Assembly: GCA_963801355.1 (NCBI GenBank)
Contig: CAWDEM010000004.1
Span: 672,001-736,000 of the forward strand
Reading direction: 5' to 3'
From: Ignavibacteriota bacterium
GTDB lineage: Bacteria; Bacteroidota; Ignavibacteria; UBA10030; UBA6906
Length of the DNA: 64,000 bases
In this document: positions 10,931 to 30,534 of the stretch, piece after piece
Layout: every line of letters begins with the position of its first letter
How positions within the stretch are numbered: the stretch's first letter is position 1
Position numbers and translations under genes: made by a program
The notes under the pieces: model-generated
Told to the model about the DNA's origin: nothing
Seen by the model: the letters and a program-made list of their open reading frames with translations, nothing else
Databases searched by the model: none

Positions 10931-10970
10931 CGTCACACTGAACGGCTAGGGAGCACACTCCCTGTGCAAT

Positions 10971-11012: not shown

Positions 11013-11176
11013 GCACTCCTGCAAAGGTTTTCCCAGAGATTGGAATCCCATTGAGCGCAGAAGAGCGCAAATTCCCTCAAATCGCTATCTAATGGTCGTT
11101 TTTGCGTGTTTGTGATGGTGGACCGGTGGCACGCAACTTGAACGGTATAGGGCACCCAAGCATCTGTGGAGTACCA

Positions 11177-13402
11177 ATGACTGTTCTTGCACATTATGTT
11201 CTGCTTCTTGCACTGTTGACCTCGGTGTCCTCGGCGGTACTGTATTTCCGTGCCGCCTCTACACGGGACGAAAGGTTGACCGTCCCGCGCGCACTGCTTC
11301 TCTCCAGCGTCTCACTTGTTGTTATCGCCTGCGCCATCCTGATCTTGTTGCTTATCCGGCATGATTTCAGCAATGCCTATGTGTACGGGTACAGCGATAG
11401 ATCGCTGCCGCTCCATTTTCTTCTCTCTGCGTTTTACGCAGGGCAGGAAGGGAGTTTCCTTTTCTGGACTCTCTGCTCGTCGCTCATCGCCCTCTGGTTG
11501 ATGCGGTCGCGGTCAGCTACACCAGCCGTGCTCACGGTCTACCTGTTCGTGAACTCGATGCTCCTGCTCCTCGTGTTTGCGAAAACCCCTTTCCACTCGA
11601 TCTGGGATGCGTACCCCGGCGTGCCGGCGGGCCAGATACCCGCGGACGGCCACGGCCTCAATCCGCTGCTGCAGAACTTCTGGATGGTCATCCATCCTCC
11701 CGTCCTGTTTCTGGGTTTTGCTCTGATGGGTGTGCCATTCTGCCAGGCCGTCGCAGCACTCTGGACACGGCAGTATGACGCATTTGCCCGGGACGGATTG
11801 GGGTGGGTGTTGACGGGTGCCTTCGTGCTGGGACTGGGCATCATGCTCGGCGCCTATTGGGCATACGGTGTGCTGGGCTGGGGCGGCTACTGGGGGTGGG
11901 ACCCTGTTGAGAACTCCTCACTGATCCCATGGCTGACGGCCATTGCTCTCGTGCATACGCTGCTTGCACAGCGGAGGACCGGCAAGTACCGCCGGACGAA
12001 CTTCTTCCTTGCCATTGTCACGTTCTTTCTTGTCATCTACAGCACATTTCTGACCCGGAGCGGGATCCTGGGCGATGCTTCGGTGCATTCGTTCTCCGAT
12101 CCGGGCGCATCGGTGTATGTCCTGCTCCTCATCTTTCTTGCATTGATCGCGGTCATGGGCATCGCCGTCATGGTCCTGCGCATGCGCGACCTGGCACCGC
12201 CACACGCCGGCACGGGATGGTTGACGCGTGAGATTCTGCTCGGTGCCGGAGCCATCGCGCTCCTGCTCTGCGCGGTGGTGATTCTCTTCGGCACAAGCCT
12301 TCCGATATTCTCCACTACCCGTGTCGAAACCTCTTTCTACGACATCACGAATCTGCCGGTCGGCATCCTTTTCGGATTGCTCATCGGCATCAGTCTGTAC
12401 ACGCAGTGGGAGGAGCAGGACATCCGCTTCACGATCCAGAAATCGTGGAAGGCTCTCCTCGCGGCGCTCCTCATCACCGCCGTACTCGTGGCGGCGGGGA
12501 TGCGGGACCCTCTGACGAGTGCAATGGTATGCACGGCGATTTTTGCGCTCCTTGTCAATATCGACATCGGGGCAAGGGGACTCCGCGGCGGCATACTGCT
12601 GCTTGGCGGCAAGCTGGCCCACATCGGTATTGCGCTGTTCTTGATCGGTGTGGTCAGCACCGGCGTGTACGATGAAACAGCACACGTCGGCTTGCCCCAG
12701 CACGAACCCGTGCAGGTGCTCGGACATACACTCTCCTACGACGGATACACTGTCCGCCCTGACGGCAAGTACGAATTTCGCGTCACAGCCACCGAAGGAA
12801 CACGGACATTTACTATTCTTCCGGTGATGTTTGAAGCACCCCAGCAAGGGATCATGCGGAATCCCGACATTGTCTCGTCGCTGACGTCGGACTTCTATCT
12901 GTCGCCGGTTTCTCTGGAGCCCGCCGAAGGCGGGACGGTGCCCGAAGAGCACGAACTGGCGAAGGGGGCCACAATCGTGCACGATAATGCCCGGGTGAAG
13001 TTTGTCCGGTTTGATATGGGCCCGGACAGGGGGGGAATGGGCGCACACGGCTCAACCGTGGCCATTGCAGCGGTGCTGGAAGTGGAGCGTGGCAAAGCCC
13101 GCGAGACATTATTCCCCGCCCTCGCACAGCGCGAGACGGGCGAAACCGACTACCGGCCTGCCATGTCGAAGCTGCTCGGGACAGAGGTGCGCCTGTTGAA
13201 GGTCAACGTGGGGATGGGTGATGCATCACCTTCGAAGATTGTCGTGGGATTTCAACGCGCGCATGCCCCACCGGCCCGGCCTGAGACATTGATGGTCGAA
13301 GCGAGTGTCAAGCCCTTCATCATTCTGTTGTGGGGAGGGACGTTGGTCATGATGGCAGGATTTGTCCTGGCAATCATCAAACGTATGAGGGAGGCAGCAT
13401 GA
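11177..13402 (+). CDS. ccmF: Cytochrome c maturation heme lyase CcmF/NrfE
   Basis: GQEGSFL, GLNPLLQNFWMVIHPP, WGGYWGWDPVEN (WWD), TFLTRSG, SVHSF motifs; ATG 11177. Confidence 0.95.
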   Translation: MTVLAHYVLLLALLTSVSSAVLYFRAASTRDERLTVPRALLLSSVSLVVIACAILILLLIRHDFSNAYVYGYSDRSLPLHFLLSAFYAGQEGSFLFWTLCSSLIALWLMRSRSATPAVLTVYLFVNSMLLLLVFAKTPFHSIWDAYPGVPAGQIPADGHGLNPLLQNFWMVIHPPVLFLGFALMGVPFCQAVAALWTRQYDAFARDGLGWVLTGAFVLGLGIMLGAYWAYGVLGWGGYWGWDPVENSSLIPWLTAIALVHTLLAQRRTGKYRRTNFFLAIVTFFLVIYSTFLTRSGILGDASVHSFSDPGASVYVLLLIFLALIAVMGIAVMVLRMRDLAPPHAGTGWLTREILLGAGAIALLLCAVVILFGTSLPIFSTTRVETSFYDITNLPVGILFGLLIGISLYTQWEEQDIRFTIQKSWKALLAALLITAVLVAAGMRDPLTSAMVCTAIFALLVNIDIGARGLRGGILLLGGKLAHIGIALFLIGVVSTGVYDETAHVGLPQHEPVQVLGHTLSYDGYTVRPDGKYEFRVTATEGTRTFTILPVMFEAPQQGIMRNPDIVSSLTSDFYLSPVSLEPAEGGTVPEEHELAKGATIVHDNARVKFVRFDMGPDRGGMGAHGSTVAIAAVLEVERGKARETLFPALAQRETGETDYRPAMSKLLGTEVRLLKVNVGMGDASPSKIVVGFQRAHAPPARPETLMVEASVKPFIILLWGGTLVMMAGFVLAIIKRMREAA

Positions 13403-13665
13403 ATGAAGTGGCGGCGAAAACGCTCCGGCGCCTGCCGGCTAATGTCGGAGGACGGTTCTTCACCACCGAGGATTGCGATGGATGTGCATATTGCGCATCC
13501 ATTGCACCCGACAATTTTGATTACCAGAAGGAGACCAACACCTATTTCGTTTCCCGGCAGCCCCGAACGAAGGCCGAGGAAGATGAAATGATGGAGGCAT
13601 TGGAGGATTGTCCGGTGGATGCCATCCGTTTGGGAAGCGACGGCAACGGAAAGGTCCGGGAGTGA
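13399..13665 (+). CDS. Single-cluster ferredoxin
   Basis: CDGCAYC...APDNF...CPVDAI; ATGA overlap with ccmF; GGAGG RBS. Confidence 0.88.
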   Translation: MNEVAAKTLRRLPANVGGRFFTTEDCDGCAYCASIAPDNFDYQKETNTYFVSRQPRTKAEEDEMMEALEDCPVDAIRLGSDGNGKVRE

Positions 13666-14708
13666 AACCCGCTCTAGAGGCAGATCTGACGGTCGCCGGG
13701 CCGCTCGACGCCCCCCCATCCACCGGAAGCTGGACGGAGCAGATGATGTTTCTGCTCCGCTCCGCGGTGCTCGCACCGTCCACCTACAACACGCAGCCGT
13801 GGAAATTCCGGGTGACAGCAGACGGCGTTGACGTGTATGCCGATTATACCCGCCGTATGCCCGCGGCAGATCCAGACGGCAGGGAAATGATGATGAGTAT
13901 CGGGGCCGCGGTGATGAATCTGCGCGTTGCCGCGGCATTTGCAGGCTACATATGCGATGTCATCTACAACTACAGCGGATCGAGCGAAGAACCTCTTGCC
14001 TCCGTCCGCCTGACGCCATGCCGGGATTGTCCTCCGGAGACGCTGGATCTGGCCGGGCTCTACGGGTTCATTGCACAGCGTCACACCAACAGGCACCCTT
14101 TCCTGCTCAGCAGGATCCCCGCGGCAGTTCTGGAGCGGGTGCGCGGTCTTGCGCACGGGACCGATCTGATGGTGATGGTATCGACGGACGGGGATCGCAA
14201 CGAACGCATTGCCGACGTGATTACCCGGGGTGACAGGATGCTCCTGGAAAATGCGGATTACCGGCGGAATGTCTCCGCCTGGCTCCACATGCATGCACAG
14301 TCTCATCCGGACGGACTTCCGGCACAGGCTTGCGGCCTCGACGCGAAGGTGGTCGCTGCAGCCCCGTGGGCGGCGCGGGTAATCGACATCGGGAAGATCC
14401 GGGCTGCACATGACAGGCATCTCTGCCTCGAAGCACCCGGCTTGATAGCGCTCTGCAGCGAAGACCATGTCCCACACTATGTTGCAGTCGGTGAACTCCT
14501 TGAACAGATACTCCTGGTGCTGACAGGTGAAGGACTCCATGCCAGTTTCTTCAACATGCCGATCCAGGTTCCAGTATTGCGCACGCAATTGCAGCAGATT
14601 CTCGGGGCCGCAGTGCCGCCGCAGCTGCTCTTGCGCCTCGGCTACTCCCTCTCCGAGCCGATCCGGACTGCCCGTCGCCCTCTGGAGGATGTTCTGTTGC
14701 GTGTATGA
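13662..14708 (+). CDS. Acg-family FMN-binding nitroreductase-like protein
   Basis: LAPSTYNTQPWKF, DPDGREMMMSIGAA, RHTNRHPF, PQLLLRLGY, RRPLEDV; GTGA overlap. Confidence 0.85.
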   Translation: MKPALEADLTVAGPLDAPPSTGSWTEQMMFLLRSAVLAPSTYNTQPWKFRVTADGVDVYADYTRRMPAADPDGREMMMSIGAAVMNLRVAAAFAGYICDVIYNYSGSSEEPLASVRLTPCRDCPPETLDLAGLYGFIAQRHTNRHPFLLSRIPAAVLERVRGLAHGTDLMVMVSTDGDRNERIADVITRGDRMLLENADYRRNVSAWLHMHAQSHPDGLPAQACGLDAKVVAAAPWAARVIDIGKIRAAHDRHLCLEAPGLIALCSEDHVPHYVAVGELLEQILLVLTGEGLHASFFNMPIQVPVLRTQLQQILGAAVPPQLLLRLGYSLSEPIRTARRPLEDVLLRV

Positions 14709-14750
14709 CGGAGTTACAGGTTCTCTTGAACATCAGGAAATCAGGTGTCT

Positions 14751-16079
14751 ATGGATACAACAAAGGACGGTCCCGAGAACACAAGCGATCAAAGTCATTC
14801 CACTGAAGCCCATTTGATCTACGGCCGCATGGATGATCCCCGGTGGGACTACAGTCATCATTTGTTGCCGCCCATATCCGCCTCAGCGACGTACCGCCTC
14901 GACAGTGCACAGCGGGGGGCGCAGGGATTCACGGAATTCGCGCACACGACGGACGAGGTGGATGTGACACGCAAAGTGCCCATCTACATTTACGACCGTC
15001 TCGGCGAGCCGAACAAGGACATGCTCGAAGAGAATCTCGCGTATGCAGAGGGTGGTGACATCGCGGTCACGTTTGCCAGCGGGATGGCGGCAATTTCGGG
15101 GGTGCTGGGCATTCTCACCGGCTCCGGCAGCGAAGTGCTGGCCCACAAGGTGCTGTACGGCTGCACCTATTCGCTGCTGACGAACTGGTACCCGCGCCTC
15201 AAGATCGGCGTGCAGTTTGTCGATTTCAGTGATGCCGCGGAAGTGGCTGCAGCGATTACAAAACACACGCGTGTACTGTACATGGAATCGCCGGTGAATC
15301 CCACCATGCGGCTCGTGGATCTCAAGGCGATTGCCGACGTTGCAGCCCGCGTCAATGCCGGCCGCGATCCCAAGGATCGGGTGTACACCGTTGTGGACAG
15401 CACATTTGCGACGCCCTTCTGCCAGCGTCCGATCGCTCTCGGCATCGATTTTGTCGTTCACTCCCTGACAAAAGGGATCGGAGGATTCGGCACGGATATC
15501 GGGGGAGCTGTGGTCGGGCCCCGGTGGAGCCACGACCAGTTGTTGTTGTTCCGGAAGGATTTTGGCGGCATTCTCTCGTCAAAGTCGGCCTGGCCCGTGC
15601 TGGTGGTGGGACTCCCTTCGCTTGCGGTGAGGATGCGGCAAATGCAGGCGACGGCGGAGCGCGTTGCCGAATTTCTTGAAACCCGTCCGGAAGTTGAGCG
15701 TGTGCTATACCCGGGGCTGGCGTCGTTCCCCCAGGCCGAGCTTGCCCGGCGGCAGATGCGGGACTTCGAAGGGAATTTCGCGCCGGGTTCCATGATCTAT
15801 TTCGTCATGAAAGGCGCCGGTCCCCAGGACGCGTTGAAGCGCGCCGAACGATTCATCAATACCCTTGCACAGGAAGCGTACTGCGTGACGCTGGCAGTCA
15901 GCCTCGGCAATATCCGCACGTTGATCGAGCATCCCGCGTCGATGACCCACTCGGCAATTCCCGCTGAAATGCAAGCAGCCAAAGGCCTGGATCCGGGCGG
16001 GGTCCGCCTGGCCATCGGTCTGGAGAAACCGGAAGATATCATCAAAGATCTTGAACATGTATTGAACCGCACCCGGTGA
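14751..16079 (+). CDS. PLP-dependent methionine gamma-lyase / Cys-Met metabolism family enzyme
   Basis: YDRLGEP, FASGMAAI, LYGCT, ESPVNP, VDSTFATP, HSLTK (PLP Lys), LAVSLG, HPASMTH. Confidence 0.88.
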   Translation: MDTTKDGPENTSDQSHSTEAHLIYGRMDDPRWDYSHHLLPPISASATYRLDSAQRGAQGFTEFAHTTDEVDVTRKVPIYIYDRLGEPNKDMLEENLAYAEGGDIAVTFASGMAAISGVLGILTGSGSEVLAHKVLYGCTYSLLTNWYPRLKIGVQFVDFSDAAEVAAAITKHTRVLYMESPVNPTMRLVDLKAIADVAARVNAGRDPKDRVYTVVDSTFATPFCQRPIALGIDFVVHSLTKGIGGFGTDIGGAVVGPRWSHDQLLLFRKDFGGILSSKSAWPVLVVGLPSLAVRMRQMQATAERVAEFLETRPEVERVLYPGLASFPQAELARRQMRDFEGNFAPGSMIYFVMKGAGPQDALKRAERFINTLAQEAYCVTLAVSLGNIRTLIEHPASMTHSAIPAEMQAAKGLDPGGVRLAIGLEKPEDIIKDLEHVLNRTR

Positions 16080-16135
16080 GGCACAGTCCGCCGGGTGGTG
16101 TATGAACAACCCAAGCCCAGGAAGGAGAATCGCTG

Positions 16136-16426
16136 ATGGCCAAAGGTAAAGTGACTTTTGACATCGAAACCTGCAAGGGATGTGAACTCTGCATTGAAGC
16201 ATGTCCCCAGGAGAGTCTCGCACTCTCCCCGAAAATCAACGCTCAGGGTTACCATTATGCAGTGCTGGTAAAAGACAACTGTACGGGGTGCACGAATTGT
16301 GCGCTTGTGTGTCCCGATGCCGTCATCACGGTGTACCGTGAAAAGAAGAAGGGGAAGACCCCTATTGCGCGGATCACCAACGTGACGCAGAACATCACCG
16401 TGACGATTGACGACGAAAGGAAATAG
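16136..16426 (+). CDS. 2x[4Fe-4S] ferredoxin (delta subunit of 2-oxoacid:ferredoxin oxidoreductase)
   Basis: CKGCELCIEACP and CTGCTNCALVCP; AAGGAG RBS. Confidence 0.93.
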   Translation: MAKGKVTFDIETCKGCELCIEACPQESLALSPKINAQGYHYAVLVKDNCTGCTNCALVCPDAVITVYREKKKGKTPIARITNVTQNITVTIDDERK

Positions 16427-16428
16427 CC

Positions 16429-17517
16429 GTGGGAGACATTCGACTCATGAAAGGCAATGAGGCGCTGGCGGAGGCGGCGATTCGCGCAGGCTGCCAGGCC
16501 TACTTTGGATATCCCATTACCCCGCAGTCCGAAGTGCTGGAATATCTCGCAGGCGAAGGGCGCAAACGCGGCATGATCGTCTTGCAGGCCGAAAGCGAAG
16601 TAGCTTCGATCAATATGGTATTCGGCGGAGCAGGTGCTGGTGCGCGCGTGATGACCTCCTCCTCAAGTCCCGGAATCAGCCTGATGCAGGAAGGCATATC
16701 GTACATTGCCTGCGCGGAGCTGCCGTGTCTGATCGTGAACGTCAATCGTGGCGGCCCCGGTCTCGGCACCATACAACCGTCGCAGGGTGACTACTTCCAG
16801 TCGGTGAAAGGAGGCGGCCATGGCGACTACCGTCTCATCGTCCTCGCGCCGTCCGGCGTGCAGGAGATGGCGGATTTTGTGTACGATGCGTTTGATCTTG
16901 CCGACACATACCGGACACCGGTGCTGATTCTTGCTGATGGGGCCCTCGGACAGATGATGGAGAAAGTGGAATTCCGTGACTACGTTCCTGCCGAGCACAT
17001 TCCGCCGAAGCCCTGGGCGACCACGGGAAAGGGCAAGGAGCATCCCCGGACGTTCATCACGACGCTCCACATGCAGCCCGAACAGATGGAAGAAGTGAAC
17101 CGGCACCTGCAGGCAAAATTCCAGAAGATTGCTGAACGTGAGGTCCGGTACGAACTCGTGAACACGGAAGACGCGGAGTATGTGATTGTTGCTTATGGCC
17201 TTGCCGCGCGGATTGCCCATCGCGCGGTGCAGCTTCTGCGTAAGGAAGGAATCCGGGTAGGTCTGCTGCGGCCGATCACCTTGTGGCCCTATCCCTCGGC
17301 GGTGTTGCGGACACTGGCGCCGGGGTTGCAGGGAGTGCTCGTGGTCGAAATGAATTCAGGGCAAATGGTGGAGGATGTCCGTCTCGCGGTCGAAGGGCGC
17401 ACACCGGTGCATTTCTACGGGCGGATGGGAGGCATCATCCCCGCCCCGGATGAAGTCGTGAGTGCATTGCGCTCGATGATCCACACCGAGGTTCCACAAG
17501 CGGCGGAGGCGCACTGA
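16429..17517 (+). CDS. vorB: 2-oxoacid:ferredoxin oxidoreductase alpha subunit (ketoisovalerate/Vor type)
   Basis: MKGNEA, GYPITPQSE, QAESE, TSSSSPGISLMQEG, RGGPGLG, KGGGHGDY. Confidence 0.92.
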   Translation: MGDIRLMKGNEALAEAAIRAGCQAYFGYPITPQSEVLEYLAGEGRKRGMIVLQAESEVASINMVFGGAGAGARVMTSSSSPGISLMQEGISYIACAELPCLIVNVNRGGPGLGTIQPSQGDYFQSVKGGGHGDYRLIVLAPSGVQEMADFVYDAFDLADTYRTPVLILADGALGQMMEKVEFRDYVPAEHIPPKPWATTGKGKEHPRTFITTLHMQPEQMEEVNRHLQAKFQKIAEREVRYELVNTEDAEYVIVAYGLAARIAHRAVQLLRKEGIRVGLLRPITLWPYPSAVLRTLAPGLQGVLVVEMNSGQMVEDVRLAVEGRTPVHFYGRMGGIIPAPDEVVSALRSMIHTEVPQAAEAH

Positions 17518-17518
17518 C

Positions 17519-18304
17519 ATGTCTCAGGAAACCACACAGGATCTGACGGTGGAAGAGCAGGAACTGCTCGAGTGCGTCTACGCAAAGCCGCATACCCTCA
17601 CCGATACACGGTTCCATTACTGCCCCGGCTGCGGCCACAGCGTTATCCACCGGGTATTGATGGAGGTGATTGAGGAACTGGACATACAGGACAAGACCAT
17701 CGGTATCGCGCCGGTGGGTTGTTCGGTCTTCGCCTACAACTACATGAATATCGACATGCAGGGCACCGCGCACGGAAGAGCGAGCGCTGTCGCAACGGCG
17801 GTCAAACGCATTCTCCCGGACAGATACGTGTTCTCCTATCAGGGAGACGGCGATCTTGCGGCGATCGGTACCGCGGAGACCATCCATACTTGTAATCGCG
17901 GCGAGAACATCATGATCGTGTTCATCAACAATGCGATCTATGGCATGACCGGCGGGCAGATGGCTCCCACAACGCTGATCGGCATGAAGACGTCGACTTC
18001 ACCCACCGGCCGCAACGTGGAGACCGGCGGCTATCCGATAAGGATGACGGAGATCGTGGCAACGTTCCCGGGTGTGTACTACGTGACGCGCCAGTCCGTG
18101 CACACGCCCAATGCCGTCCGGCAACTCAAGAAGGCCTTCACCAAGGGCTTTCAATATCAGAAGGAAAAGAAAGGCACATGTTTCATTGAAGTAGTCTCCA
18201 ATTGTCCCTCCGGGTGGAAGATGACCCCGCTCCAGGCAAATGAGTGGCTGGTGGAGAACATGTTCCCCTTCTATCCGCCCGGCGACATCAAAGTCCCGAA
18301 ATGA
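17519..18304 (+). CDS. 2-oxoacid:ferredoxin oxidoreductase beta (TPP-binding) subunit
   Basis: HYCPGCGH, PVGCS, HGRA, YQGDGDLAAIG, NNAIYGMTGGQMAPTT. Confidence 0.93.
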   Translation: MSQETTQDLTVEEQELLECVYAKPHTLTDTRFHYCPGCGHSVIHRVLMEVIEELDIQDKTIGIAPVGCSVFAYNYMNIDMQGTAHGRASAVATAVKRILPDRYVFSYQGDGDLAAIGTAETIHTCNRGENIMIVFINNAIYGMTGGQMAPTTLIGMKTSTSPTGRNVETGGYPIRMTEIVATFPGVYYVTRQSVHTPNAVRQLKKAFTKGFQYQKEKKGTCFIEVVSNCPSGWKMTPLQANEWLVENMFPFYPPGDIKVPK

Positions 18305-18343
18305 ACTGAACGAATCGCAGACTGTCGACAAAAGGATGCACTT

Positions 18344-18895
18344 ATGACTCATGAACTCTTAGCCGCCGGCTTTGGCGGACAGGGTGTGCTCTCGTTGGGA
18401 GCGACCCTGGCGTATGCCGGCATGATCGAGAACAAGGAAATCACCTGGATGCCTTCGTACGGTCCGGAAATGCGCGGTGGGACGGCGAATTGCATCATCA
18501 TTGTCTCGGACGAACGGATCAGTTCGCCTATCGTCACGACCTTTGATACGGTCATCGCGCTGAACCAGCCGTCGCTCGAAAAATTTGAAAAGGCCGTGAA
18601 GCCCGGCGGGCTGTTGATTTATGACTCGACGAGCATGCTGACGCCGCCGCGCCGCACGGATATCCAGGTGGTCCCGATCCCCGCGGGGGATGAGGCCTTG
18701 AAGCTGAAGAACACCAAAGTGCTGAACATGATCGTTCTGGGCGCTTTTCTCGAGAGAACCCATGTCGTGGAAATCGATGCGATCATGAAAGCCCTGCGCA
18801 AGGCCCTGCCCGAACGGTACCATAACCTGTTACCGCTGAACGAGCAGGCATTGCGGCGGGGAATGGAACTCGCCGGCCAACCGGCAATGGTCTGA
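18344..18895 (+). CDS. 2-oxoacid:ferredoxin oxidoreductase gamma subunit
   Basis: AGFGGQG, PSYGPEMRGGTANC, NMIVLGA. Confidence 0.93.
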   Translation: MTHELLAAGFGGQGVLSLGATLAYAGMIENKEITWMPSYGPEMRGGTANCIIIVSDERISSPIVTTFDTVIALNQPSLEKFEKAVKPGGLLIYDSTSMLTPPRRTDIQVVPIPAGDEALKLKNTKVLNMIVLGAFLERTHVVEIDAIMKALRKALPERYHNLLPLNEQALRRGMELAGQPAMV

Positions 18896-18904
18896 CGGGG
18901 CAGA

Positions 18905-19192
18905 ATGCCCGCAGCACTGGACGTTCAACAACGCGAGGAGCTTATGGAGCGGACGTGTGTGCATTCGTGCAAAGGTCTGTGCAATGCGCTGGACGTGATG
19001 GAACGCCGGGAGCAGGAAGCCATCGCGTTGTACCGTCAGTACGCCGCGGAGTGTGACTACCCCGACGTGAAGGAATTGCTTGATGCGTTGATCGCCGATC
19101 GCGAGCGGGGATTGCACCTGCTGCGGGAGAAACGGGAGACCCTGACCGCGAAATTCGCGGTCACCGACCGGATCAATGACAGCTTCGCCTGA
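18905..19192 (+). CDS. Small ferritin/rubrerythrin-like helical protein with N-terminal Cx3Cx3C
   Basis: CVHSCKGLC then E..E.EA..LY...A..(D)VKELL..L pattern; fits between operon genes. Confidence 0.6.
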   Translation: MPAALDVQQREELMERTCVHSCKGLCNALDVMERREQEAIALYRQYAAECDYPDVKELLDALIADRERGLHLLREKRETLTAKFAVTDRINDSFA

Positions 19193-19225
19193 CCAACTTC
19201 AAGGACAAGGAGTGCCGGAACCCCT

Positions 19226-20347
19226 ATGAGCAAATACACAATTGCCTGGCTGCCCGGGGATGGAATCGGAAAAGACGTGATGGACGCCACGCGCCTGGTC
19301 CTCGACCGGATCAAGCTCGACGCGGAATATGTGCACGGGGATATTGGCTGGGAATTCTGGTGCAAGGAGGGGGACGCCCTTCCCCAGCGGACAATCGATC
19401 TCTTGCGGCGCGTCAACGCCGCGATGTTTGGTGCCATCACCTCGAAACCCGTCAAGGCTGCCGAAGCGGAACTGATTCCCGAGCTGAAGGGGAAGGGGTT
19501 GGTGTACCGCTCGCCCATTGTGCGGATGCGGCAGATGTTCGACCTGTATATCTGTCTCCGCCCGTGCAAAGCCTATCCGGCCAACCCTCTGAACTTCAAA
19601 GACGGCATTGACCTGGTGGTGTTCAGAGAGAACACGGAAGACCTCTATGCCGGCGTTGAGTTCTTTCCGGTGCCCAAGGAGCTTTCGGATATGCTGTCGA
19701 AGCTTTCGAAGCCGTTCACTGCCTTCCGCGATTTGCAGGGCGATCAGTTCGCCATCTCCTGCAAGGTCAACACCAAGCGGGGATCGGAACGGATTGTCCG
19801 GGCGGCATTTGAATTCGCCAGGAAACACAACCGGCGGAAAGTGACGATCGTACACAAAGCAAATGTGGTGCGTGCAACTGACGGCCTTTTTCTCGAGGAG
19901 GCCCGGCATGTGGCGCGTGAGTATCCCGGGATACAGTTCGATGAAGCCAACGTAGATGCAATCTGCATGTGGCTGATGAAGAACCCCTTCAGCTACGACG
20001 TTCTTGTGGCCCCGAACCTCTACGGCGATATTATCTCCGACCTTGCCGCCCAGATGGTGGGCGGGCTCGGCTTCGGATGCTCCGGGAATATCGGACACCG
20101 GCTCGCCGTGTTCGAACCCTCTCACGGTTCGGCACCAAAATATGCAGGCCAGAACAAGGTGAACCCGATTGCGACAATTCTCGCCGCAAAAATGATGCTC
20201 GACTGGCTCGGTGAGACGGAAAAAGGCGCGCAGATCGAAAAGGCGACGGCTGCGGTGATCAGAGAAGGGAAGATCCGCACCTACGATATGGGAGGATCGC
20301 ACTCGACGACGGATATTGCCGAAGCGATAGCCGCACATCTATGCTGA
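19226..20347 (+). CDS. Isocitrate/isopropylmalate dehydrogenase family enzyme (homoisocitrate-DH-like)
   Basis: LPGDGIG, YRSPIVRMR, RENTEDLY, VHKANV, NLYGDIISDL, FEPSHGSAP. Confidence 0.9.
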   Translation: MSKYTIAWLPGDGIGKDVMDATRLVLDRIKLDAEYVHGDIGWEFWCKEGDALPQRTIDLLRRVNAAMFGAITSKPVKAAEAELIPELKGKGLVYRSPIVRMRQMFDLYICLRPCKAYPANPLNFKDGIDLVVFRENTEDLYAGVEFFPVPKELSDMLSKLSKPFTAFRDLQGDQFAISCKVNTKRGSERIVRAAFEFARKHNRRKVTIVHKANVVRATDGLFLEEARHVAREYPGIQFDEANVDAICMWLMKNPFSYDVLVAPNLYGDIISDLAAQMVGGLGFGCSGNIGHRLAVFEPSHGSAPKYAGQNKVNPIATILAAKMMLDWLGETEKGAQIEKATAAVIREGKIRTYDMGGSHSTTDIAEAIAAHLC

Positions 20348-21252
20348 CACCACACATCGTCCTGCATGAAGTCGGTCTGCGGGATGGACTGCAGATGGAA
20401 ACTGCATCCGTCCCGACCGCGCAAAAACTCCAATGGGTCCGTGCTCTCGCCGCGGCCGGGATGGACGTCATCCAGGTCGGATCGTTCGTGCATCCTGTCA
20501 AGGTGCCGCAAATGGCGGACACCGATCAGGTGTTCCGTGAGCTTACAGCGCCGGGGGCGAGGCCGCCGGGGGTCGTGCTTTCGGGTCTTGTGCTGAACGA
20601 GAAGGGGCTCGAGCGCGGCATGGCATGTGGCGTGGACATGTTCTGCATGGGAGTTTCTGCAAGTGAGACACACAGCCGCAAGAATACCGGCATGCCGACG
20701 GCCGAAGCCACCGATCGAATCATCGGCATGGCCGTGTCAGCATTGAAAGCCGGAAAGGCCATCCAGGTTTCCGTGCAGTCCGCTTTCGGCTGTGGGTATG
20801 AAGGCGCAGTTCCTCCGGCCCGCGCAGTCGCGATTGTGCGGCGGTACCTCGAGGCCGGCCTGACAAGCATCAGTCTTGCAGATACGGCCGGCCATGCTAC
20901 ACCCGCGATGGTGGAGAATTTGTTCGAGGCCATCCGGGCCATGGACGACACGATCGAGTTGGCCTGTCATTTTCACAACACGTACGGCATGGCGATCGCC
21001 AACTGCTCTGCGGCGCTCCGGGTGGGTGTCCAGTCGGTTGAATCTTCGATTGCCGGCCTGGGTGGATGCCCGTATACGAAAATTGCGGGCGGCAATGTCT
21101 GCACAGAGGACTTCGTGCACATGCTCCAGCGGATGAACCTCCGGAAAGACGTCAATCTCGACGGCCTGATAGCTGTAGCCCGTGAGGTTGCTGCTTTCTT
21201 CAATCGGGATATGCCCGGTATGGTATACAAAACAGGCCCCATTCCTCAGTAG
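20341..21252 (+). CDS. HMG-CoA lyase / (R)-citramalyl-CoA lyase family (DRE-TIM)
   Basis: EVGLRDGLQ, SFVHPVKVPQMAD, LADTAG, HFHNT, GLGGCPY, GNVCTED. Confidence 0.9.
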   Translation: MLTPHIVLHEVGLRDGLQMETASVPTAQKLQWVRALAAAGMDVIQVGSFVHPVKVPQMADTDQVFRELTAPGARPPGVVLSGLVLNEKGLERGMACGVDMFCMGVSASETHSRKNTGMPTAEATDRIIGMAVSALKAGKAIQVSVQSAFGCGYEGAVPPARAVAIVRRYLEAGLTSISLADTAGHATPAMVENLFEAIRAMDDTIELACHFHNTYGMAIANCSAALRVGVQSVESSIAGLGGCPYTKIAGGNVCTEDFVHMLQRMNLRKDVNLDGLIAVAREVAAFFNRDMPGMVYKTGPIPQ

Positions 21253-21271
21253 CCTCAAGCGCGACACGGAC

Positions 21272-22480
21272 ATGACATCATCTGCAGCATCGCTTCTTTC
21301 GGGAATCAGAGTTCTTGACATGACAAACGTGCTTTCGGGCCCGTTTGCCACGTTGCACCTCGCCCTGCTCGGCGCGGAGGTCATCAAGGTGGAAAATCCG
21401 GCGGACGGTGATCTGGCGCGCAAACTCGGATGTGTTCCGGAATACAACCGGCGGCTCATGGGAACGAGTTTTCTTGCCCAGAATGCCAACAAGAAGTCGC
21501 TCACCCTGAATCTCAAAGCGCCTGAGGGGAAGGAGATTTTCAAGAAGCTGGCCGCGACCGCGGATGTCGTGGTGGAGAATTTCCGTCCGGACGTTATGGG
21601 TCGCCTGGGTCTTTCGTATGAAGTGCTGCGTGCCATCAATCCGAGGCTCATCTACTGCGGTATTTCCGGTTTCGGCCAATCCGGCCCGGACGCTTTGAAG
21701 CCCGCCTACGATCAGATCATCCAGGGGCTGAGCGGGGAGATGGCCATCAATGGCGATGAGCAACTGAGTCCGTTGCGTGCGGGTTTTCCCGTGTGCGACA
21801 CTGTCGGCGGATTGAATGCTGCGTTCGCCATCATGGCGGCTCTCTACTGGCGAGAGCGTTCGGGGGAAGGCCAATGGATTGATGTGGCACTCCTGGATTC
21901 CATCATGCCATTGATGGGCTGGGTGGTGGCGAATCTGCTGATCGGCGGCCAGCAACCGGTTCTCATGGGAAATGACAATTTTACCGCCGCTCCCTCCGGG
22001 TCGTTCCGCACCAGGGATGGAAGCATCAATATTGCTGCAAACAAACAGGAGCAGTGGGAAGCCGTCACCGATGTCCTCGGCGTGCCGGAACTCAGGAACG
22101 ACCCGAGGTTCTCCGAGCGTGATACCAGGAAGAAGAACCGGAAGGCACTCACACTGTTGCTGGAGGAAAAACTCCAGGAGCGGGAAACTGGGTACTGGGT
22201 GGAAGTGTTGAACAATCACGATGTGCCGTCGGGCGCCATTCTGAGCCTGGACGCCGCGCTGCACCAGCCGCAGGTGACCCACCGGAACACATTCAGCACG
22301 GTCGATGTTGAAGGAATAGGCTCAATTCCGTTGTTCAATTTGACCGCCAAGTTTGAGAAGACCCCTGGGACTGTCACAGCTCCACCGCCAGCGCTCGGCG
22401 CGCACACCGCGGAAGTGCTCAAAGAACTCGGATATGAAGATGCGCAGATTACAGCATTGAAAGAAAAGCGTGTGGTGTGA
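21272..22480 (+). CDS. Family III (CaiB/BaiF) CoA-transferase
   Basis: LSGIRVLD, GAEVIKVE, NANKKS, ADVVVENFRP, SGFGQSGP, AYD catalytic Asp; ATG 21272. Confidence 0.93.
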   Translation: MTSSAASLLSGIRVLDMTNVLSGPFATLHLALLGAEVIKVENPADGDLARKLGCVPEYNRRLMGTSFLAQNANKKSLTLNLKAPEGKEIFKKLAATADVVVENFRPDVMGRLGLSYEVLRAINPRLIYCGISGFGQSGPDALKPAYDQIIQGLSGEMAINGDEQLSPLRAGFPVCDTVGGLNAAFAIMAALYWRERSGEGQWIDVALLDSIMPLMGWVVANLLIGGQQPVLMGNDNFTAAPSGSFRTRDGSINIAANKQEQWEAVTDVLGVPELRNDPRFSERDTRKKNRKALTLLLEEKLQERETGYWVEVLNNHDVPSGAILSLDAALHQPQVTHRNTFSTVDVEGIGSIPLFNLTAKFEKTPGTVTAPPPALGAHTAEVLKELGYEDAQITALKEKRVV

Positions 22481-23793
22481 ACCCGGAACAGGAAAGGCAT
22501 CTCATGGGAATGACAGTCGTCGAAAAGATTCTTGCGCGTGCAAGCGGACAGGCTGTTGTGAAGGCAGGCGACGTGCTCGAACCGAAGGTGGATCTGGCGA
22601 TGTCGCACGAAAATGCCGCGCTGGTGGTGAATCAGTTCCTGGAAATTTTCAAGGATACCGGCCGTGAGGCACGTGTCTGGGATCCGTCTCGAGTGGCGAT
22701 CATCTTTGATCACCGGGTTCCCGCGGAATCACCGAAGACGGCCACCAACCAGAAGAAGGTCCGTGAATTTGTAGCGCGCCACATGATCAGCAAGTTCCAT
22801 GACATCCGCGGTGATCTCGGCGGTATTTGTCACCAGATTCTCCCCGAAAGCGGTTATGTCCGTCCCGGCGCGGTGGTGGTAGGTACCGATTCCCACACCA
22901 CGAGCCATGGCGCTCTTGGCGCGTTCTCGTTCGGCATCGGTGCGACGGAGATGGCCAGTGTCTGGACGCTGGGGTATGCGGTGAACGTTGAAGTGCCGGC
23001 GACTATCAAGGTGGTGATTCACGGCAGATTTCCGCGGATGGTAGGACCGAAGGATCTGATCCTTCATCTGATCGGGAAACTGACCTCCCAGGGGGCGAAC
23101 TTCCGTGTCATTGAGTTCCACGGCGAGACTATCCGGGCAATGCCCACATCCGGCAGACTGGTGATCTGCAATATGTCTGTCGAGGCAGGGGCCACGTCGG
23201 GCATCGTGCCGGCCGATGAAGAGACGGTGCAGTATCTCCGGGAGGAATCGGGAGTGACCGATCCCCTTGACCTTGTGCAACCTGATGAGGACGCGGTCTA
23301 CGCGCAGACCCTTACGATTGATGTCTCGAAGCTCGAGCCGCAAGTTGCCTGTCCGCATTCCGTGGACAATGTGAAGCCCCTCGGTGCCGTGGTGGGGACA
23401 AGGGTAGATCAGGTGGTGATTGGTTCATGTACGAACGGCAGGCTCGACGACATCGAGGTTGCGGCGTCGCTTTTGCGGGGGAAGAAGGTTGCCCGGAACA
23501 CCCGTATGCTGGTTTTTCCGGCGTCGGGCCGGATTTATCAGCGGGCGCTCGAACGCGGTTATATCGCCGATATCATGCGCGCAGGTGCAGTGGTGATGAA
23601 CCCGGGCTGCGGTCCCTGCCTGGGCGTGCATGAGGGTGCGCTGGGAGACGGTGAGGTTGCGCTGTCGACCACGAACCGGAATTTTAAAGGCCGGATGGGA
23701 AATCCCACGGCGGACGTGTATCTTTGTTCGCCCGCTGTCGCCGCTGCTTCAGCCGTGGCGGGAATGATCGCCGATCCGAGAAAAGGAGTGTAA
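22477..23793 (+). CDS. Isopropylmalate isomerase / homoaconitase large subunit (LeuC/HacA family)
   Basis: DH, GICHQ, DSHT, GSCTNGR, PGCGPCLG, STTNRNFKGRMG; start may be 22504. Confidence 0.92.
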   Translation: MNPEQERHLMGMTVVEKILARASGQAVVKAGDVLEPKVDLAMSHENAALVVNQFLEIFKDTGREARVWDPSRVAIIFDHRVPAESPKTATNQKKVREFVARHMISKFHDIRGDLGGICHQILPESGYVRPGAVVVGTDSHTTSHGALGAFSFGIGATEMASVWTLGYAVNVEVPATIKVVIHGRFPRMVGPKDLILHLIGKLTSQGANFRVIEFHGETIRAMPTSGRLVICNMSVEAGATSGIVPADEETVQYLREESGVTDPLDLVQPDEDAVYAQTLTIDVSKLEPQVACPHSVDNVKPLGAVVGTRVDQVVIGSCTNGRLDDIEVAASLLRGKKVARNTRMLVFPASGRIYQRALERGYIADIMRAGAVVMNPGCGPCLGVHEGALGDGEVALSTTNRNFKGRMGNPTADVYLCSPAVAAASAVAGMIADPRKGV

Positions 23794-23798
23794 ACACC

Positions 23799-24296
23799 AT
23801 GGCACAAGTGGTCTATGTCGTCGGCGATGACATTTCAACGGATGTCATTTATCCGGGCCGGTACATGGCAACGGTGCTTCCGACGGAAACACCGCAGTTC
23901 GCGTTTGTTGACGATGCGGAGTTCAATGGCAGACTCAGGAACAGACAGATTCCCGCCGGCAGTATCATTGTTGCGGGAAGTAACTTCGGCTGCGGTTCCT
24001 CCCGCGAACAGGCTGTGTCCACGCTCAAGGGGCATGAGTTGATCATCGTCGCACGCAGTGTCGCGCGGATATTCATGCAGAACGCCATCAACCTGGGATT
24101 GCGTCTCGTTGTCTCACCAGGGATCACCGCGGCTGCAGGAGATGACCTGGTCATCGAGAGCAATCGCGTGGTGAACACAACCAGCGGAGCGGCCTTCCCG
24201 CTCGAGCCACTGCCGCGTGCGCGTCAGGTCATCGTCGACTCGGGAGGCCTGATTGCCTATACGAGAAAACGGATGCTCGAGCGTCCGGCTCTCTGA
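23799..24296 (+). CDS. Isopropylmalate isomerase / homoaconitase small subunit (LeuD/HacB family)
   Basis: DDISTDVIYPGRY, NFGCGSSREQA, ARIFMQNAINLG; ATG 23799. Confidence 0.92.
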   Translation: MAQVVYVVGDDISTDVIYPGRYMATVLPTETPQFAFVDDAEFNGRLRNRQIPAGSIIVAGSNFGCGSSREQAVSTLKGHELIIVARSVARIFMQNAINLGLRLVVSPGITAAAGDDLVIESNRVVNTTSGAAFPLEPLPRARQVIVDSGGLIAYTRKRMLERPAL

Positions 24297-24342
24297 TCGC
24301 CCGGATGTTCAGCCTGGCGGTGGATGACGGAAAGAGGAGCTG

Positions 24343-25734
24343 ATGGAAGGCGCGATTGCGAATATCGATGTCAGCCTGTTAAAGAAGTACGACAGACCCG
24401 GCCCACGCTACACCAGCTATCCGACCGCTCCGCTGTTCAGCCCTGCATTCACGGCGGACGATTTTCGCCGGGAAATTGCAGCGACGAACACCCCGGACGC
24501 CTCTCCGGATCTTTCACTCTACTTTCATTTTCCCTTCTGCGATACGCTCTGCTATTTTTGCGGATGCACGATGCTCGTGACGCGGGACCGCAAACGCATT
24601 GAGGAATACAACCGTTATCTGCAGAAGGAAATGGCTCTTGTCGCGCCGCTGATCGCTCCGCACAGGCGGGCCACACAGCTGCACTGGGGCGGCGGCACTC
24701 CGTCGCATCTCTCGCCCGACCAGATCGTCTCCATCGCGGGCGCAATCCGGTCCGCATTTGCGATCGCCGCGGACGCCGAGACAAGTGTGGAAATCGATCC
24801 GCGGGAACTCTCCCTCCCGCACCTGGAAGCACTCCGGGAGGCAGGTTTCAACCGCATGAGCATGGGGATTCAGGATTTCGATCCTCACGTGCAGGCGGCG
24901 GTGAACCGTGTGCAACCACCGGAGACTTCCCGGCAGGTCTATACCTGGGCGCGTGAGCTCGGCTTCACGAGCATCAACCTCGATCTGATGTACGGACTGC
25001 CATTCCAGACGCTGGCATCGTTTGAGCGGACGGTTCGCGACATCATTGCCTACGGCGCCGACCGGATTGCCGTGTTCAACTACGCCCATGTCCCCTGGCT
25101 GAAACCCCATCAGAAACTCATTCGTCCCGAAGACCTCCCGTCACCGGAACTGAAACTCGATATGCTCAAAATGACCATCGAGAAGCTGACGCAGAACGGG
25201 TACGAGTACATCGGCATGGACCATTTTGCCAAGCCTGACGACGAACTTTCCCGCGCGCGGGCGGCCCGGACACTTTACAGGAATTTTCAGGGTTACTCGA
25301 CTCGGGCGGGGGCCGATCTGTACGGTTTCGGGATGTCGTCCATCAGCCATTTCCGGAATATCTATGCACAGAACGCCAAGAATCTCCCGGAGTATTACCG
25401 GGCACTCGATGCCAGACATCATGCAACGCACCTCGGCTATCGCATGACCGGCGACGATCACCTCAGGAAGTTCGTGATCATGCGCTTGATGTGTGACCTC
25501 GAGCTGGACTTTGCGACGGTCGAACGGAAATTCTCTATTGATTTCCCTGCGGTGTTTGCCACTGCGCTCGAAGGGCTCAAGCCCCTCGCGTCGGATGGCC
25601 TGGTGGAGCTTACCGATTCGGGTGTCCGGGTCGTCGGTCCCGGCCGCCTGCTACTGCGTAATATTGCGATGTGCTTCGATGCGTATCTGGAACGAATGAC
25701 GCGCGAGAAGCCGATCTTCTCACGAACAGTGTGA
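24343..25734 (+). CDS. hemN: Oxygen-independent coproporphyrinogen III oxidase
   Basis: GPRYTSYPTA, HFPFCDTLCYFCGC radical-SAM motif, HWGGGTP, IGMDHFA, RNFQGY, FSRTV end. Confidence 0.96.
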   Translation: MEGAIANIDVSLLKKYDRPGPRYTSYPTAPLFSPAFTADDFRREIAATNTPDASPDLSLYFHFPFCDTLCYFCGCTMLVTRDRKRIEEYNRYLQKEMALVAPLIAPHRRATQLHWGGGTPSHLSPDQIVSIAGAIRSAFAIAADAETSVEIDPRELSLPHLEALREAGFNRMSMGIQDFDPHVQAAVNRVQPPETSRQVYTWARELGFTSINLDLMYGLPFQTLASFERTVRDIIAYGADRIAVFNYAHVPWLKPHQKLIRPEDLPSPELKLDMLKMTIEKLTQNGYEYIGMDHFAKPDDELSRARAARTLYRNFQGYSTRAGADLYGFGMSSISHFRNIYAQNAKNLPEYYRALDARHHATHLGYRMTGDDHLRKFVIMRLMCDLELDFATVERKFSIDFPAVFATALEGLKPLASDGLVELTDSGVRVVGPGRLLLRNIAMCFDAYLERMTREKPIFSRTV

Positions 25735-30357: not shown

Positions 30358-30534
30358 ACGGCTGAGCTCGGGGAAGAGCCGTCTGTGTCCGCACTGTCTT
30401 CCAAGGACCTTTGCAGATCACGTCCCACCCCGGATGTACTCATCCACTCCTCCTCTCTCCAGCCATTACCTCATCAATCTCATTGCAGCTGACACTCCTC
30501 CATTGTATCTTTGGAAGTCCACACCAGTCATCCT

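Follow-up and report, generated by a model that had tools for sequence, protein, structure and literature searches.

A conserved synthase-free cassette of 2-oxoacid enzymes in Ignavibacteriota and other bacterial lineages, with a possible role in reverse 2-oxoacid elongation

The five-gene cassette and its conservation

The window analysed here is a stretch of 64,000 nucleotides from an Ignavibacteriota bacterium (assembly GCA_963801355.1, contig CAWDEM010000004.1, positions 672,001 to 736,000 of the forward strand). Its 4.8 Mb source genome is designated G000, relatives bear labels of the form G0xx and loci of the form L0xx. An earlier note on this DNA had reported five tightly coupled genes at 19226-24296, in which a lyase and a CoA-transferase would stand in for the condensing synthase of a 2-oxoacid elongation module. 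Open reading frames (ORFs) and domain matches confirmed the five genes, all on the same strand. The first encodes a beta-decarboxylating dehydrogenase of the isocitrate/isopropylmalate dehydrogenase (ICDH/IPMDH) family, predicted to be NADP(H)-dependent (19226..20347, +; Iso_dh 5.4e-89). It is followed by an acyl-CoA lyase of the hydroxymethylglutaryl-CoA (HMG-CoA) lyase, or HMGL, family (20341..21252, +; HMGL-like 1.8e-43; PRK05692 280.8 bits against a cut-off of 246), a family III CoA-transferase (21272..22480, +; CoA_transf_3 5.1e-120), and the large (LeuC/HacA-type, likely 22504..23793, +; Aconitase 1.2e-98; PRK00402 551 bits against 385) and small (LeuD/HacB-type, likely 23799..24296, +; LEUD_arch 114.8 bits against 108.95) subunits of an Fe-S (de)hydratase/isomerase. 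The dehydrogenase and lyase genes overlap by 7 nt and the remaining gaps are of about 5-23 nt. The transferase ORF spans 21182-22480, with the ATG at 21272 as its likely start, giving a protein of 402 aa where orthologues have 397-402 aa. Together with a terminal hemN gene, the cassette makes up the 3' half of an array of twelve genes on one strand (14745-25734), in which no intergenic gap exceeds 56 nt, and the cluster reaches beyond the limits that the earlier note had given to it.

The observation that the window holds no LeuA, CimA or homocitrate synthase was borne out by searches with PF00682 and with family models. In the whole G000 genome, the sole other PF00682 match was a canonical leuA located about 0.9 Mb from the cassette, within an operon ilvD?-ilvB-ilvN-leuA-leuC-leuD-leuB-ilvC (C4:1597553-1607464).

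A lyase scan of species-representative genomes yielded 468 relatives, and the locus counts given below cover the best 80 of these 468. A gene was counted as present in this set at 50% identity or more with half-length coverage, and many of the 80 loci end at contig ends. According to record titles, they belong to Bacteroidota/Ignavibacteriota, Calditrichia, 'Chlorobiaceae', Acidobacteriota (including Vicinamibacterales), Gemmatimonadales and Armatimonadetes, and a few are titled proteobacterial or Chrysiogenales; one carrier locus, L082, comes from a metagenome-assembled genome titled Ignavibacterium album. Conservation of the cassette, on which the idea of the earlier note depended, was evident: all five genes were found in 41 of the 80 loci, with identical order and strand in 40 of these 41, while lyase and transferase genes were together and adjacent in 71. 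Median identities to the window proteins were 78% for the dehydrogenase, 66% for the lyase, 76% for the transferase, 76% for the LeuC-like and 66% for the LeuD-like subunit. The five-gene arrangement is not due to chance. Among genomes whose locus displayed the lyase alone or just the lyase-transferase pair, 10 of 14 held a cassette-type LeuC (70-77% identity) elsewhere; the parts therefore co-occur at the genome level. In these dispersed cases the LeuC and LeuD genes stay paired, with the dehydrogenase gene alongside in 3 of 10. In the order to which the window belongs, 28 of 61 genomes have the lyase, and in its family 25 of 36 (G000 left out).

Long antisense ORFs cover real genes in the window, such as one of 379 aa opposite the dehydrogenase gene (19199-20338, -), and an ORF cluster of related GC-rich loci (c3), which consisted of antisense ORFs above real genes, was discarded as an artefact. 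A promoter and terminator scan was uninformative (promoter-like sites, 1 against 5.1 expected; terminator-like sites, 13 against 11.3 expected). A protein-atlas search returned 'HMGL-like' clusters only, and a search of sequencing runs listed no RNA run with the window sequence, the best DNA run having 0.22 of its words.

Recognition residues and candidate substrates

The lyase possesses an HMGL-like DRE-TIM domain and retains the R-D, H-x-H and GxGGCP motifs of HMG-CoA lyases. RDGLQ was found in 61 of 61 orthologues, and HFHNTYG and GLGGCP in at least 54 of 61 among the variants listed. Its best solved match is the B. subtilis enzyme (1ydo, 203.7 bits). Alignment placed a Gln ('IQ.GSF') at a position that is Glu in each of the five solved HMG-CoA lyases compared, on the 'IE..SF' strand, which we take to be human Glu72; this Gln was found in 54 of the 61 orthologues, the remaining 7 falling outside the search pattern. 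In addition, RDGLQ is followed by a Met in the lyase family (27+10+9 orthologues, plus other variants), against an Asn in four of the five solved enzymes. Based on these residues, we propose that the protein is a 2-alkylmalyl-CoA lyase of the citramalyl-CoA type and not an HMG-CoA lyase. Among solved structures, the transferase is nearest to that of human succinate--hydroxymethylglutarate CoA-transferase (SUGCT, 9br6; 267.8 bits). The Asp in the 'PVCDTVGG' motif of the window protein aligns with an Asp of SUGCT and of a formyl-CoA transferase, presumably the catalytic Asp of family III CoA-transferases. The gene is single-copy in G000, where tblastn detected no paralogue.

These best matches could also be read as two unrelated functions sharing a location: an HMG-CoA lyase with a SUGCT-like transferase, which would serve hydroxymethylglutarate/glutarate salvage or the end of leucine/lysine catabolism, and an ICDH-like dehydrogenase with an aconitase-family hydratase. 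The lyase indeed passes the NCBIfam cut-off of the HMG-CoA lyase subfamily (280.8 against 246), the transferase is nearest to the human SUGCT enzyme, the lyase-transferase pair stands alone in some genomes, and no other lyase of this family with about 300 aa was found in the five carriers checked. However, order and strand are fixed in nearly all five-gene loci, the dehydrogenase and lyase genes overlap, and the conserved Glu-to-Gln change separates the lyase from the five solved HMG-CoA lyases. Moreover, the 61-genome set contains no HMGL-type lyase in relatives devoid of the cassette, and no methylcrotonyl-CoA carboxylase candidate was found in G000, in a search of which HMG-CoA synthase was not part. 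This genome has a single acyl-CoA carboxyltransferase of the propionyl-CoA/methylcrotonyl-CoA carboxylase type, beside a methylmalonyl-CoA mutase, together with two short AccA/AccD-like matches, so that a supply of HMG-CoA by the usual leucine route is not evident. On balance, such a fortuitous neighbourhood is quite improbable.

The dehydrogenase reached no NCBIfam equivalog cut-off, its best match being AksF2 (339 bits against 540). In an alignment that included three G000 paralogues, it shared 'RS....R...DLYICLRP' and the ICDH-type insertion with E. coli ICDH. The Ser113/Asn115 pair of ICDH (E. coli numbering) binds the gamma-carboxylate; Ser113 is kept in the dehydrogenase, Asn115 is replaced by Ile, and a Val stands at Val116. 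The resulting 'SPIVR' was found in 36 of 40 orthologues. The earlier note had likened its 'YRSPIV.R' motif to homoisocitrate dehydrogenases (HICDH), a resemblance that did not hold up, as the segment aligned cleanly to 'IRSLNVALR' of E. coli ICDH and poorly to the Thermus HICDH. At the position of Arg85 in the latter enzyme, the dehydrogenase has a Val, and the Thermus R85V variant is said to retain homoisocitrate activity. The cofactor motif is APKYAG. Its KY is also present in E. coli ICDH, where K344/Y345 are presumably the NADP determinants, and in the NADP-ICDH-like paralogue of G000, against the NAD-type APDIAG in LeuB and the NAD-IDH-like paralogue of the same genome; DI was likewise found in LeuB of two related branched-chain amino-acid operons. 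KY was conserved in 34 of 40 orthologues, the other 6 lying outside the pattern, and these residues suggest that the cofactor is probably NADP(H).

The LeuC-like protein exceeded the cut-offs of both IPMI_arch (520.6 bits) and hacA_fam (512.5 bits), and the best solved match of the LeuD-like protein is the small subunit of the M. jannaschii isopropylmalate/citramalate isomerase (3vba, 98.6 bits). The small-subunit loop sets specificity, according to one report (PMC7308503). By alignment to solved structures, this loop reads YMAT in the window protein, YLVY in 3vba, YLRT in the M. jannaschii homoaconitase small subunit HacB (2pkp) and YNLT in the P. horikoshii small subunit 1v7l. [Y/F]MAT was found in 27 of 29 LeuD-like orthologues, and the Arg of the homoaconitase loop is absent from it. 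The same report describes 1v7l, whose loop is also devoid of Arg, as able to replace a homoaconitase subunit (PMC7308503). The window loop differs from the isopropylmalate isomerase type at positions 3 and 4, be it YLVY in 3vba or the HLVY of related branched-chain operons. Two related genomes with an operon CimA-LeuC-LeuD-LeuA-LeuB-IlvC display this HLVY in LeuD, together with 'LL...R' and 'DI' in LeuB. Cassette enzymes thus depart from the true elongation enzymes of related bacteria in three respects, namely recognition loop, substrate loop and cofactor motif.

An ATP-independent route of citrate cleavage or formation, along 2-oxoglutarate, isocitrate, citrate and citryl-CoA to oxaloacetate and acetyl-CoA, beside a 2-oxoglutarate synthase, would be in keeping with the features shared by the dehydrogenase and E. 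coli ICDH (RS...R..DLYICLRP, the ICDH-type insertion and KY), and citryl-CoA is the carboxy analogue of HMG-CoA. It is nevertheless extremely improbable, in view of the replacement of ICDH Asn115 by Ile, the wide conservation of 'SPIVR' (36 of 40 orthologues), the LeuD-like loop without Arg, and the presence in G000 of citrate synthase, aconitase and two ICDH-type genes. Isocitrate and citrate are therefore unlikely substrates and a charged side chain appears disfavoured. An uncharged side chain is favoured instead, because the LeuD-like loop has no homoaconitase-type Arg and the dehydrogenase has Ile/Val at ICDH Asn115/Val116. The recognition residues (Ala/Thr, Ile/Val and Met), being small and uncharged, may leave space for a bulkier uncharged chain. 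The caution expressed in the earlier note, that sequence alone cannot fix the substrate, still applies.

Relation to branched-chain amino-acid biosynthesis and to neighbouring genes

If the cassette replaced a condensing synthase in biosynthesis, the two would be expected to exclude one another, and the earlier note had proposed this as a check. No such anticorrelation was found in the 61 related genomes, with LeuA and other lineages also considered: lyase and CimA occurred together in 13 genomes, the lyase without CimA in 15, CimA without the lyase in 7, and neither in 26. All four congeners of G000 carry both the cassette and a CimA above cut-off. Furthermore, no IlvC was found in 35 of 62 lyase-bearing genomes, and biosynthesis as a general function was not borne out. 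Searches detected no IlvC in 9 of the 28 relatives with the lyase, six of them rated 100% complete (G016, G019, G022, G026, G037 and G053), and none in 26 of the 34 lyase carriers from other lineages (completeness was rated for the relatives only). Eight of these nine IlvC-negative relatives were fetched and all eight retain the array. In the second set, IlvC was found in 8 of 34 genomes, once as a fragment, and CimA above cut-off in 5. The cassette is thus mostly hosted by genomes in which the valine/isoleucine core pathway was not detected, so that isoleucine/leucine synthesis is not its general function; nor, with CimA showing no anticorrelation and IlvC undetected in 35 of 62 genomes, is it a general replacement for a branched-chain amino-acid synthase.

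A forward, thioester-conserving elongation should still be considered for individual genomes. In this scheme, acetyl-CoA and pyruvate would be joined by the lyase into (R)-citramalyl-CoA, the transferase would pass the CoA on, and the LeuCD-like enzyme and the dehydrogenase would convert the product to 2-oxobutyrate, destined for isoleucine or, via the oxidoreductase, for propionyl-CoA. G000 has ilvB/N, leuABCD and ilvC, that is, a full ilv/leu operon, and neither a CimA above cut-off (its best TIGR00977 match is its leuA, 196 bits against 450) nor a threonine dehydratase (best match 115.7 bits against 378.75) was found in it. Seven relatives are IlvC-positive and CimA-negative (G000, G005, G007, G012, G020, G030 and G050); the first six carry the cassette and no IlvA, and the seventh has IlvA. 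A lyase and transferase are already listed as a possible indirect route to (R)-citramalate in a review (PMC8307300). These agreements are counterbalanced by several observations. CimA is also present in 13 of the 28 lyase-bearing relatives, and IlvC was not detected in many carriers (9 of the 28 relatives and 26 of 34 others). Support from the six genomes without CimA and IlvA is weak because the cassette is common in the family (25 of 36 genomes, only 1 of 36 having threonine dehydratase), the genomes are kin, and two are incomplete (61% and 87%). The NADP-type motif and the recognition residues, which are not those of LeuD and LeuB, are unlike those of biosynthetic enzymes. Finally, the array offers other sources of 2-oxobutyrate, namely a pyridoxal phosphate (PLP) enzyme of the gamma-lyase type and an oxidoreductase acting on propionyl-CoA; the underground routes of E. 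coli (PMC7476758) offer a comparison. As a general explanation, forward elongation is unlikely; the cassette may be reversible, with a forward role limited to genomes such as G000.

The first gene of the array encodes a divergent PLP enzyme of Cys/Met metabolism, methionine gamma-lyase-like and 444 aa long (14745..16079, +; Cys_Met_Meta_PP 1e-94). Its designation as a 'Met lyase' in the earlier note proved too specific, as the best NCBIfam methionine gamma-lyase models gave 318 bits against cut-offs of 549-666. Gamma-elimination by this enzyme family yields 2-oxobutyrate. The next four genes specify a 2-oxoacid:ferredoxin oxidoreductase: a 2x[4Fe-4S] ferredoxin, probably the delta subunit (16136..16426, +; Fer4_7 and related families; 2 nt from the alpha gene), a VorB-type alpha subunit (16429..17517, +; POR_N, PFOR_II; PRK07119 545.7 bits against 399), a beta subunit binding thiamine pyrophosphate (17519..18304, +; TPP_enzyme_C 1.1e-20) and a gamma subunit (18344..18895, +; POR 2e-37). 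Between these and the cassette lies a small conserved, Cys-containing ORF of 95 aa that is not assignable to a family by function (18905..19192, +), with no Pfam family at E<=0.001 and a faint DUF2383 match at 0.0085. The array is closed by hemN, encoding the oxygen-independent coproporphyrinogen oxidase (24343..25734, +; TIGR00538 585.7 bits against 325), which is probably co-regulated and no member of the pathway.

The gene order of the array recurred in all 12 further relatives that were fetched, with all twelve genes present in 10 and only locus-end genes missing from the other two. The PLP enzyme had a match in 10 of these 12 (L105 and L109 being without) and was syntenic in 14 of the 80 loci; the same counts were obtained for hemN, which was missing at L109 and L110, where the locus ends. 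An ORF matching the 95-aa one stands directly 5' of the dehydrogenase gene in many loci, with at least 50% identity in 16 of 80 and 43-68% identity in 12 of 12 relatives. The oxidoreductase adjoins the cassette in 21 of the 80 loci and in every one of the 12 relatives fetched, and an orthologue of its alpha subunit was found in all 28 lyase-bearing relatives. In 12 loci, a butyryl-CoA:acetate-type CoA-transferase gene is inserted between those of the PLP enzyme and the ferredoxin, an arrangement in keeping with an oxidoreductase that works oxidatively and with subsequent recycling of CoA. In 5 loci, genes resembling NfnAB, phosphotransacylase and acyl kinase are only a few genes away from the cassette, and in 2 loci a Ser/Thr-dehydratase/BhcB-like gene lies 5' of the lyase-transferase pair. 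Four Calditrichia loci (L050, L058, L063 and L066), three of them near-identical, have a putative carbonic anhydrase gene (131 aa; Pro_CA_2 3.5e-44; for example L063:2320-2715) between the dehydrogenase and lyase genes; their dehydrogenase has Phe instead of Arg ahead of 'SPIV'. Peptidases, an amino-acid permease and histidine ammonia-lyase were each encoded near the cassette in single lineages, and in Acidobacteriota/Gemmatimonadota the neighbours were housekeeping or unrelated genes without a clue to the substrate.

Several further features were recorded around these loci. Just upstream of the array (9287-13402), the window encodes a multihaem cytochrome c (547 aa; cytochrome c3/c7 and Geobacter-type CxxCH motifs) and a CcmF-like cytochrome c assembly protein (766 aa). 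Next come a small ferredoxin gene (13330-13665) and an ORF resembling nitroreductases (13608-14708), and the upstream block is syntenic in close relatives (clusters c9, c10 and c13). An ORF of 607 aa at 30511-32334 combines a barrel domain of the pyruvate-kinase type (8.4e-45) with a weak match to HpcH/HpaI aldolase. In the Ignavibacteria-type loci L036, L049, L052 and L062, an Rrf2-family regulator of 146 aa (for example L049:301-741) adjoins the cassette, and the oxidoreductase is flanked by a sigma-54 response regulator, a histidine kinase and an M54 peptidase.

A tricarboxylate variant of the pathway was suggested by other neighbours. It would run the alpha-aminoadipate (AAA) route in reverse for lysine catabolism, from 2-oxoadipate and CO2 over homoisocitrate, homocitrate and homocitryl-CoA to acetyl-CoA and 2-oxoglutarate, with succinyl-CoA regenerated by the oxidoreductase. 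In L084 and L094, the transferase (71% identity) lies beside the lyase in an operon with L-lysine 6-transaminase (TIGR03251, 622 bits against 520.8) and an aldehyde dehydrogenase, and L098 shares this lyase-transferase layout up to the end of the locus at the next gene. Moreover, the nearest solved relative of the transferase acts on C5-C6 dicarboxylates, the best NCBIfam match of the dehydrogenase is a homoisocitrate dehydrogenase model, although below cut-off, and its Val takes the place of Thermus HICDH Arg85. On the other hand, the LeuD-like loop has no homoaconitase-type Arg, and the L084 and L094 genomes are without cassette-type LeuC (best 40-41%) and dehydrogenase (best 53%). The transaminase was present in 57 of 61 relatives regardless of the cassette and was not found in 7 of 20 cassette genomes of other lineages. 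A second carboxyltransferase, syntenic with the transaminase in most relatives, would, given its presumed function, suit a conventional glutaryl/glutaconyl-CoA route. The tricarboxylate variant is accordingly judged improbable. The earlier note had also pointed to a 'LysN-like' aminotransferase (35916-37178); only generic or MocR-type models matched it, below their cut-offs, and the name was not retained, G000 having LysA- and DapB-like genes. Lysine biosynthesis by the forward AAA pathway is unlikely too, as tblastn with E. coli LysA and DapB detected homologues in G000 (31%, 3e-42 and 29%, 6e-27, respectively).

L-lysine 6-transaminase and the aldehyde dehydrogenase form a conserved pair (L084:3791-6820; L094; G000 C8:2399025-2402187). 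As a marker of the cassette, the transaminase was rejected for being non-discriminating (57 of 61 genomes in the order and 13 of 20 carriers of other lineages, at E<=1e-60). At about 490-505 bits to PF01039, the second acyl-CoA carboxyltransferase is encoded 15-25 kb away from the transaminase in most relatives, G000 being without this type. It was rejected as a proxy for leucine catabolism, as no clean anticorrelation emerged and cassette-less relatives have the carboxyltransferase without an HMGL lyase. One genome with lyase and transferase and without cassette-type LeuC and dehydrogenase contains a cluster (L142; G070:C3:148000-158000) in which two ORFs of 658 aa flank others of 544 and 392 aa. 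The first 658-aa ORF gave LeuC-like matches and the 392-aa ORF encodes a dehydrogenase 53% identical to that of the window; this cluster may be the closest paralogous system.

A possible catabolic pathway and its place among known systems

Taken together, it is quite possible, though short of probable, that the five genes encode a conserved pathway linking a 2-oxoacid and CO2 with acetyl-CoA and the 2-oxoacid one carbon shorter, and that this pathway is mainly run catabolically. Gene content, conservation, the distinctive residues and the missing link to branched-chain biosynthesis are direct findings, from which direction, substrates and the coupling to the oxidoreductase are inferred. Of the two directions that the earlier note had left open, the backward one is hence preferred, while the forward one is not general and may apply in G000, which is without CimA and IlvA. 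The NADP(H)-type dehydrogenase would first carboxylate R-CH2-CO-COOH reductively to a 3-alkylmalate, which the LeuC/LeuD-like Fe-S enzyme would isomerise to a 2-alkylmalate. The family III transferase would then load CoA onto the carboxymethyl arm of this compound, and the HMGL-like lyase would cleave the 2-alkylmalyl-CoA into acetyl-CoA and R-CO-COOH. The conversion of 2-oxobutyrate to pyruvate is the simplest case and the one that best fits the local context, in which the upstream PLP enzyme of the gamma-lyase type would supply 2-oxobutyrate; 2-oxoisocaproate is possible and would match the VorB-type oxidoreductase.

Several arguments favour the cleavage direction. Synthases hydrolyse the thioester and are irreversible, and pairs of a CoA-transferase and a lyase are known from citrate lyase, citramalate lyase, itaconate degradation and Chloroflexus Sct/Ccl; all such pairs operate, to our knowledge, in the cleavage direction. 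Since transferase-lyase pairs elsewhere cleave hydroxy-acids whose synthases are irreversible, the same may be expected here. Cleavage is also favoured because most carriers show no use for elongated products, because the dehydrogenase motif is switched to the NADP type, and because catabolic or redox enzymes are encoded around the cassette. The pathway could well operate reversibly, with both directions used.

In G000, the oxidoreductase could complement this reverse elongation. It would oxidise a 2-oxoacid of the pathway to CO2, reduced ferredoxin and an acyl-CoA serving as CoA donor, so that the net process would be near redox-neutral, ferredoxin electrons reaching NADPH via Nfn. The closed scheme would then sum to R-CH2-CO-COOH + CoA + H2O -> R-COOH + acetyl-CoA, with no net reducing equivalents. 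That oxidoreductase and cassette together form such a closed fermentation of 2-oxoacids from amino acids, a new catabolic pathway that would mirror amino-acid chain elongation and be spread over at least five phyla, is however doubtful.

Several points speak against the reverse elongation or its coupling to the oxidoreductase. For an IPMDH-type enzyme, carboxylating its substrate reductively is uphill when CO2 is at ambient levels. Many of the organisms with the cassette (Acidobacteriota, Gemmatimonadota) probably live aerobically, and no oxidoreductase adjoins it there. As a cassette-specific partner the oxidoreductase had to be rejected, since 22 of the 33 lyase-free relatives have its orthologue as well; it is a general enzyme that the cassette has become linked to. 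The links to carbonic anhydrase and Nfn come from only one or two lineages each, and in one lineage the transferase belongs to the lysine 6-transaminase and aldehyde dehydrogenase operon described above. E. coli ICDH shares KY and yet works oxidatively, so that this motif does not fix the direction. Given that MAT and IV contrast with LVY and LL in related citramalate/isopropylmalate enzymes, 2-oxobutyrate and 2-oxoisocaproate are not assured as substrates either. Lastly, the cassette could be the source of 2-oxobutyrate in the six IlvC-positive genomes without CimA and IlvA, G050, the only one with IlvA, standing apart.

If reverse elongation is confirmed, widespread soil and sediment bacteria (Ignavibacteriota/Bacteroidota, Calditrichia, Acidobacteriota and Gemmatimonadota) use enzymes annotated for leucine or lysine synthesis, along with an 'HMG-CoA lyase', for another thioester-dependent pathway. 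Automatic LeuB, LeuC and LeuD names would then mislead predictions of auxotrophy in genomes showing no IlvC, a step consuming CO2 and NADPH would have to be added to models of anaerobic amino-acid degradation, and reversible, ATP-neutral enzymes would become available for synthetic 2-oxoacid pathways. The Glu-to-Gln change, at a site conserved in solved HMG-CoA lyases, defines a lyase family.

No published description of this gene combination was found, in a search that was thin on subscription journals and did not extend to supplementary tables. The nearest described system is the (R)-citramalate transferase/lyase pair of Chloroflexus aurantiacus, reportedly characterised by Friedmann et al. 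in 2006/2007. It comprises succinyl-CoA:(R)-citramalate CoA-transferase (EC 2.8.3.20) and (R)-citramalyl-CoA lyase (EC 4.1.3.46), and a synthase-free formation of (R)-citramalate by such a pair has been proposed on paper, both as given in PMC8307300. The parallel with this pair, drawn in the earlier note, was upheld, since a family III transferase gene adjoins an HMGL-family lyase gene in the window and in 71 of 80 loci; in Chloroflexus, a 2-alkylmalate is activated and cleaved to acetyl-CoA and a 2-oxoacid. In gene content, the two systems differ in that the cassette adds a LeuCD-type isomerase, an NADP-type dehydrogenase and, in this lineage, a ferredoxin oxidoreductase. What appears to be new is the union of the pair with a dedicated dehydrogenase and isomerase, the residue signatures, the breadth of conservation and the dissociation from amino-acid biosynthesis.

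With the elongation modules LeuA/LeuCD/LeuB, CimA, homocitrate/AAA and AksADEF of methanogens, the cassette shares the isomerase and dehydrogenase families and the chemistry interconverting a 2-oxoacid and its one-carbon homologue. Unlike them, it contains no condensing synthase, the only one of G000 being the leuA of a separate operon; it displays KY instead of DI and MAT/IV instead of LVY/LL, and it resides mostly in genomes in which IlvC was not found. Both central proteins have their best matches in HMG-CoA lyase (EC 4.1.3.4) and SUGCT, with the lyase motifs and the transferase Asp kept, whereas the lyase is set apart from HMG-CoA lyase by Gln for Glu and Met for Asn, and a route to HMG-CoA is not apparent in G000. 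The proposed succession of a ferredoxin oxidoreductase, an NADP-dependent reductive carboxylation, an Fe-S isomerase and a thioester-dependent cleavage to acetyl-CoA would also resemble the reductive branch of the reverse tricarboxylic acid cycle, with its 2-oxoglutarate synthase, NADP-ICDH, aconitase and citryl-CoA-type cleavage. In contrast to that branch, the substrate residues oppose isocitrate and citrate, and cleavage would be performed by a family III transferase and an HMGL lyase instead of ATP-citrate lyase or citryl-CoA synthetase/lyase.

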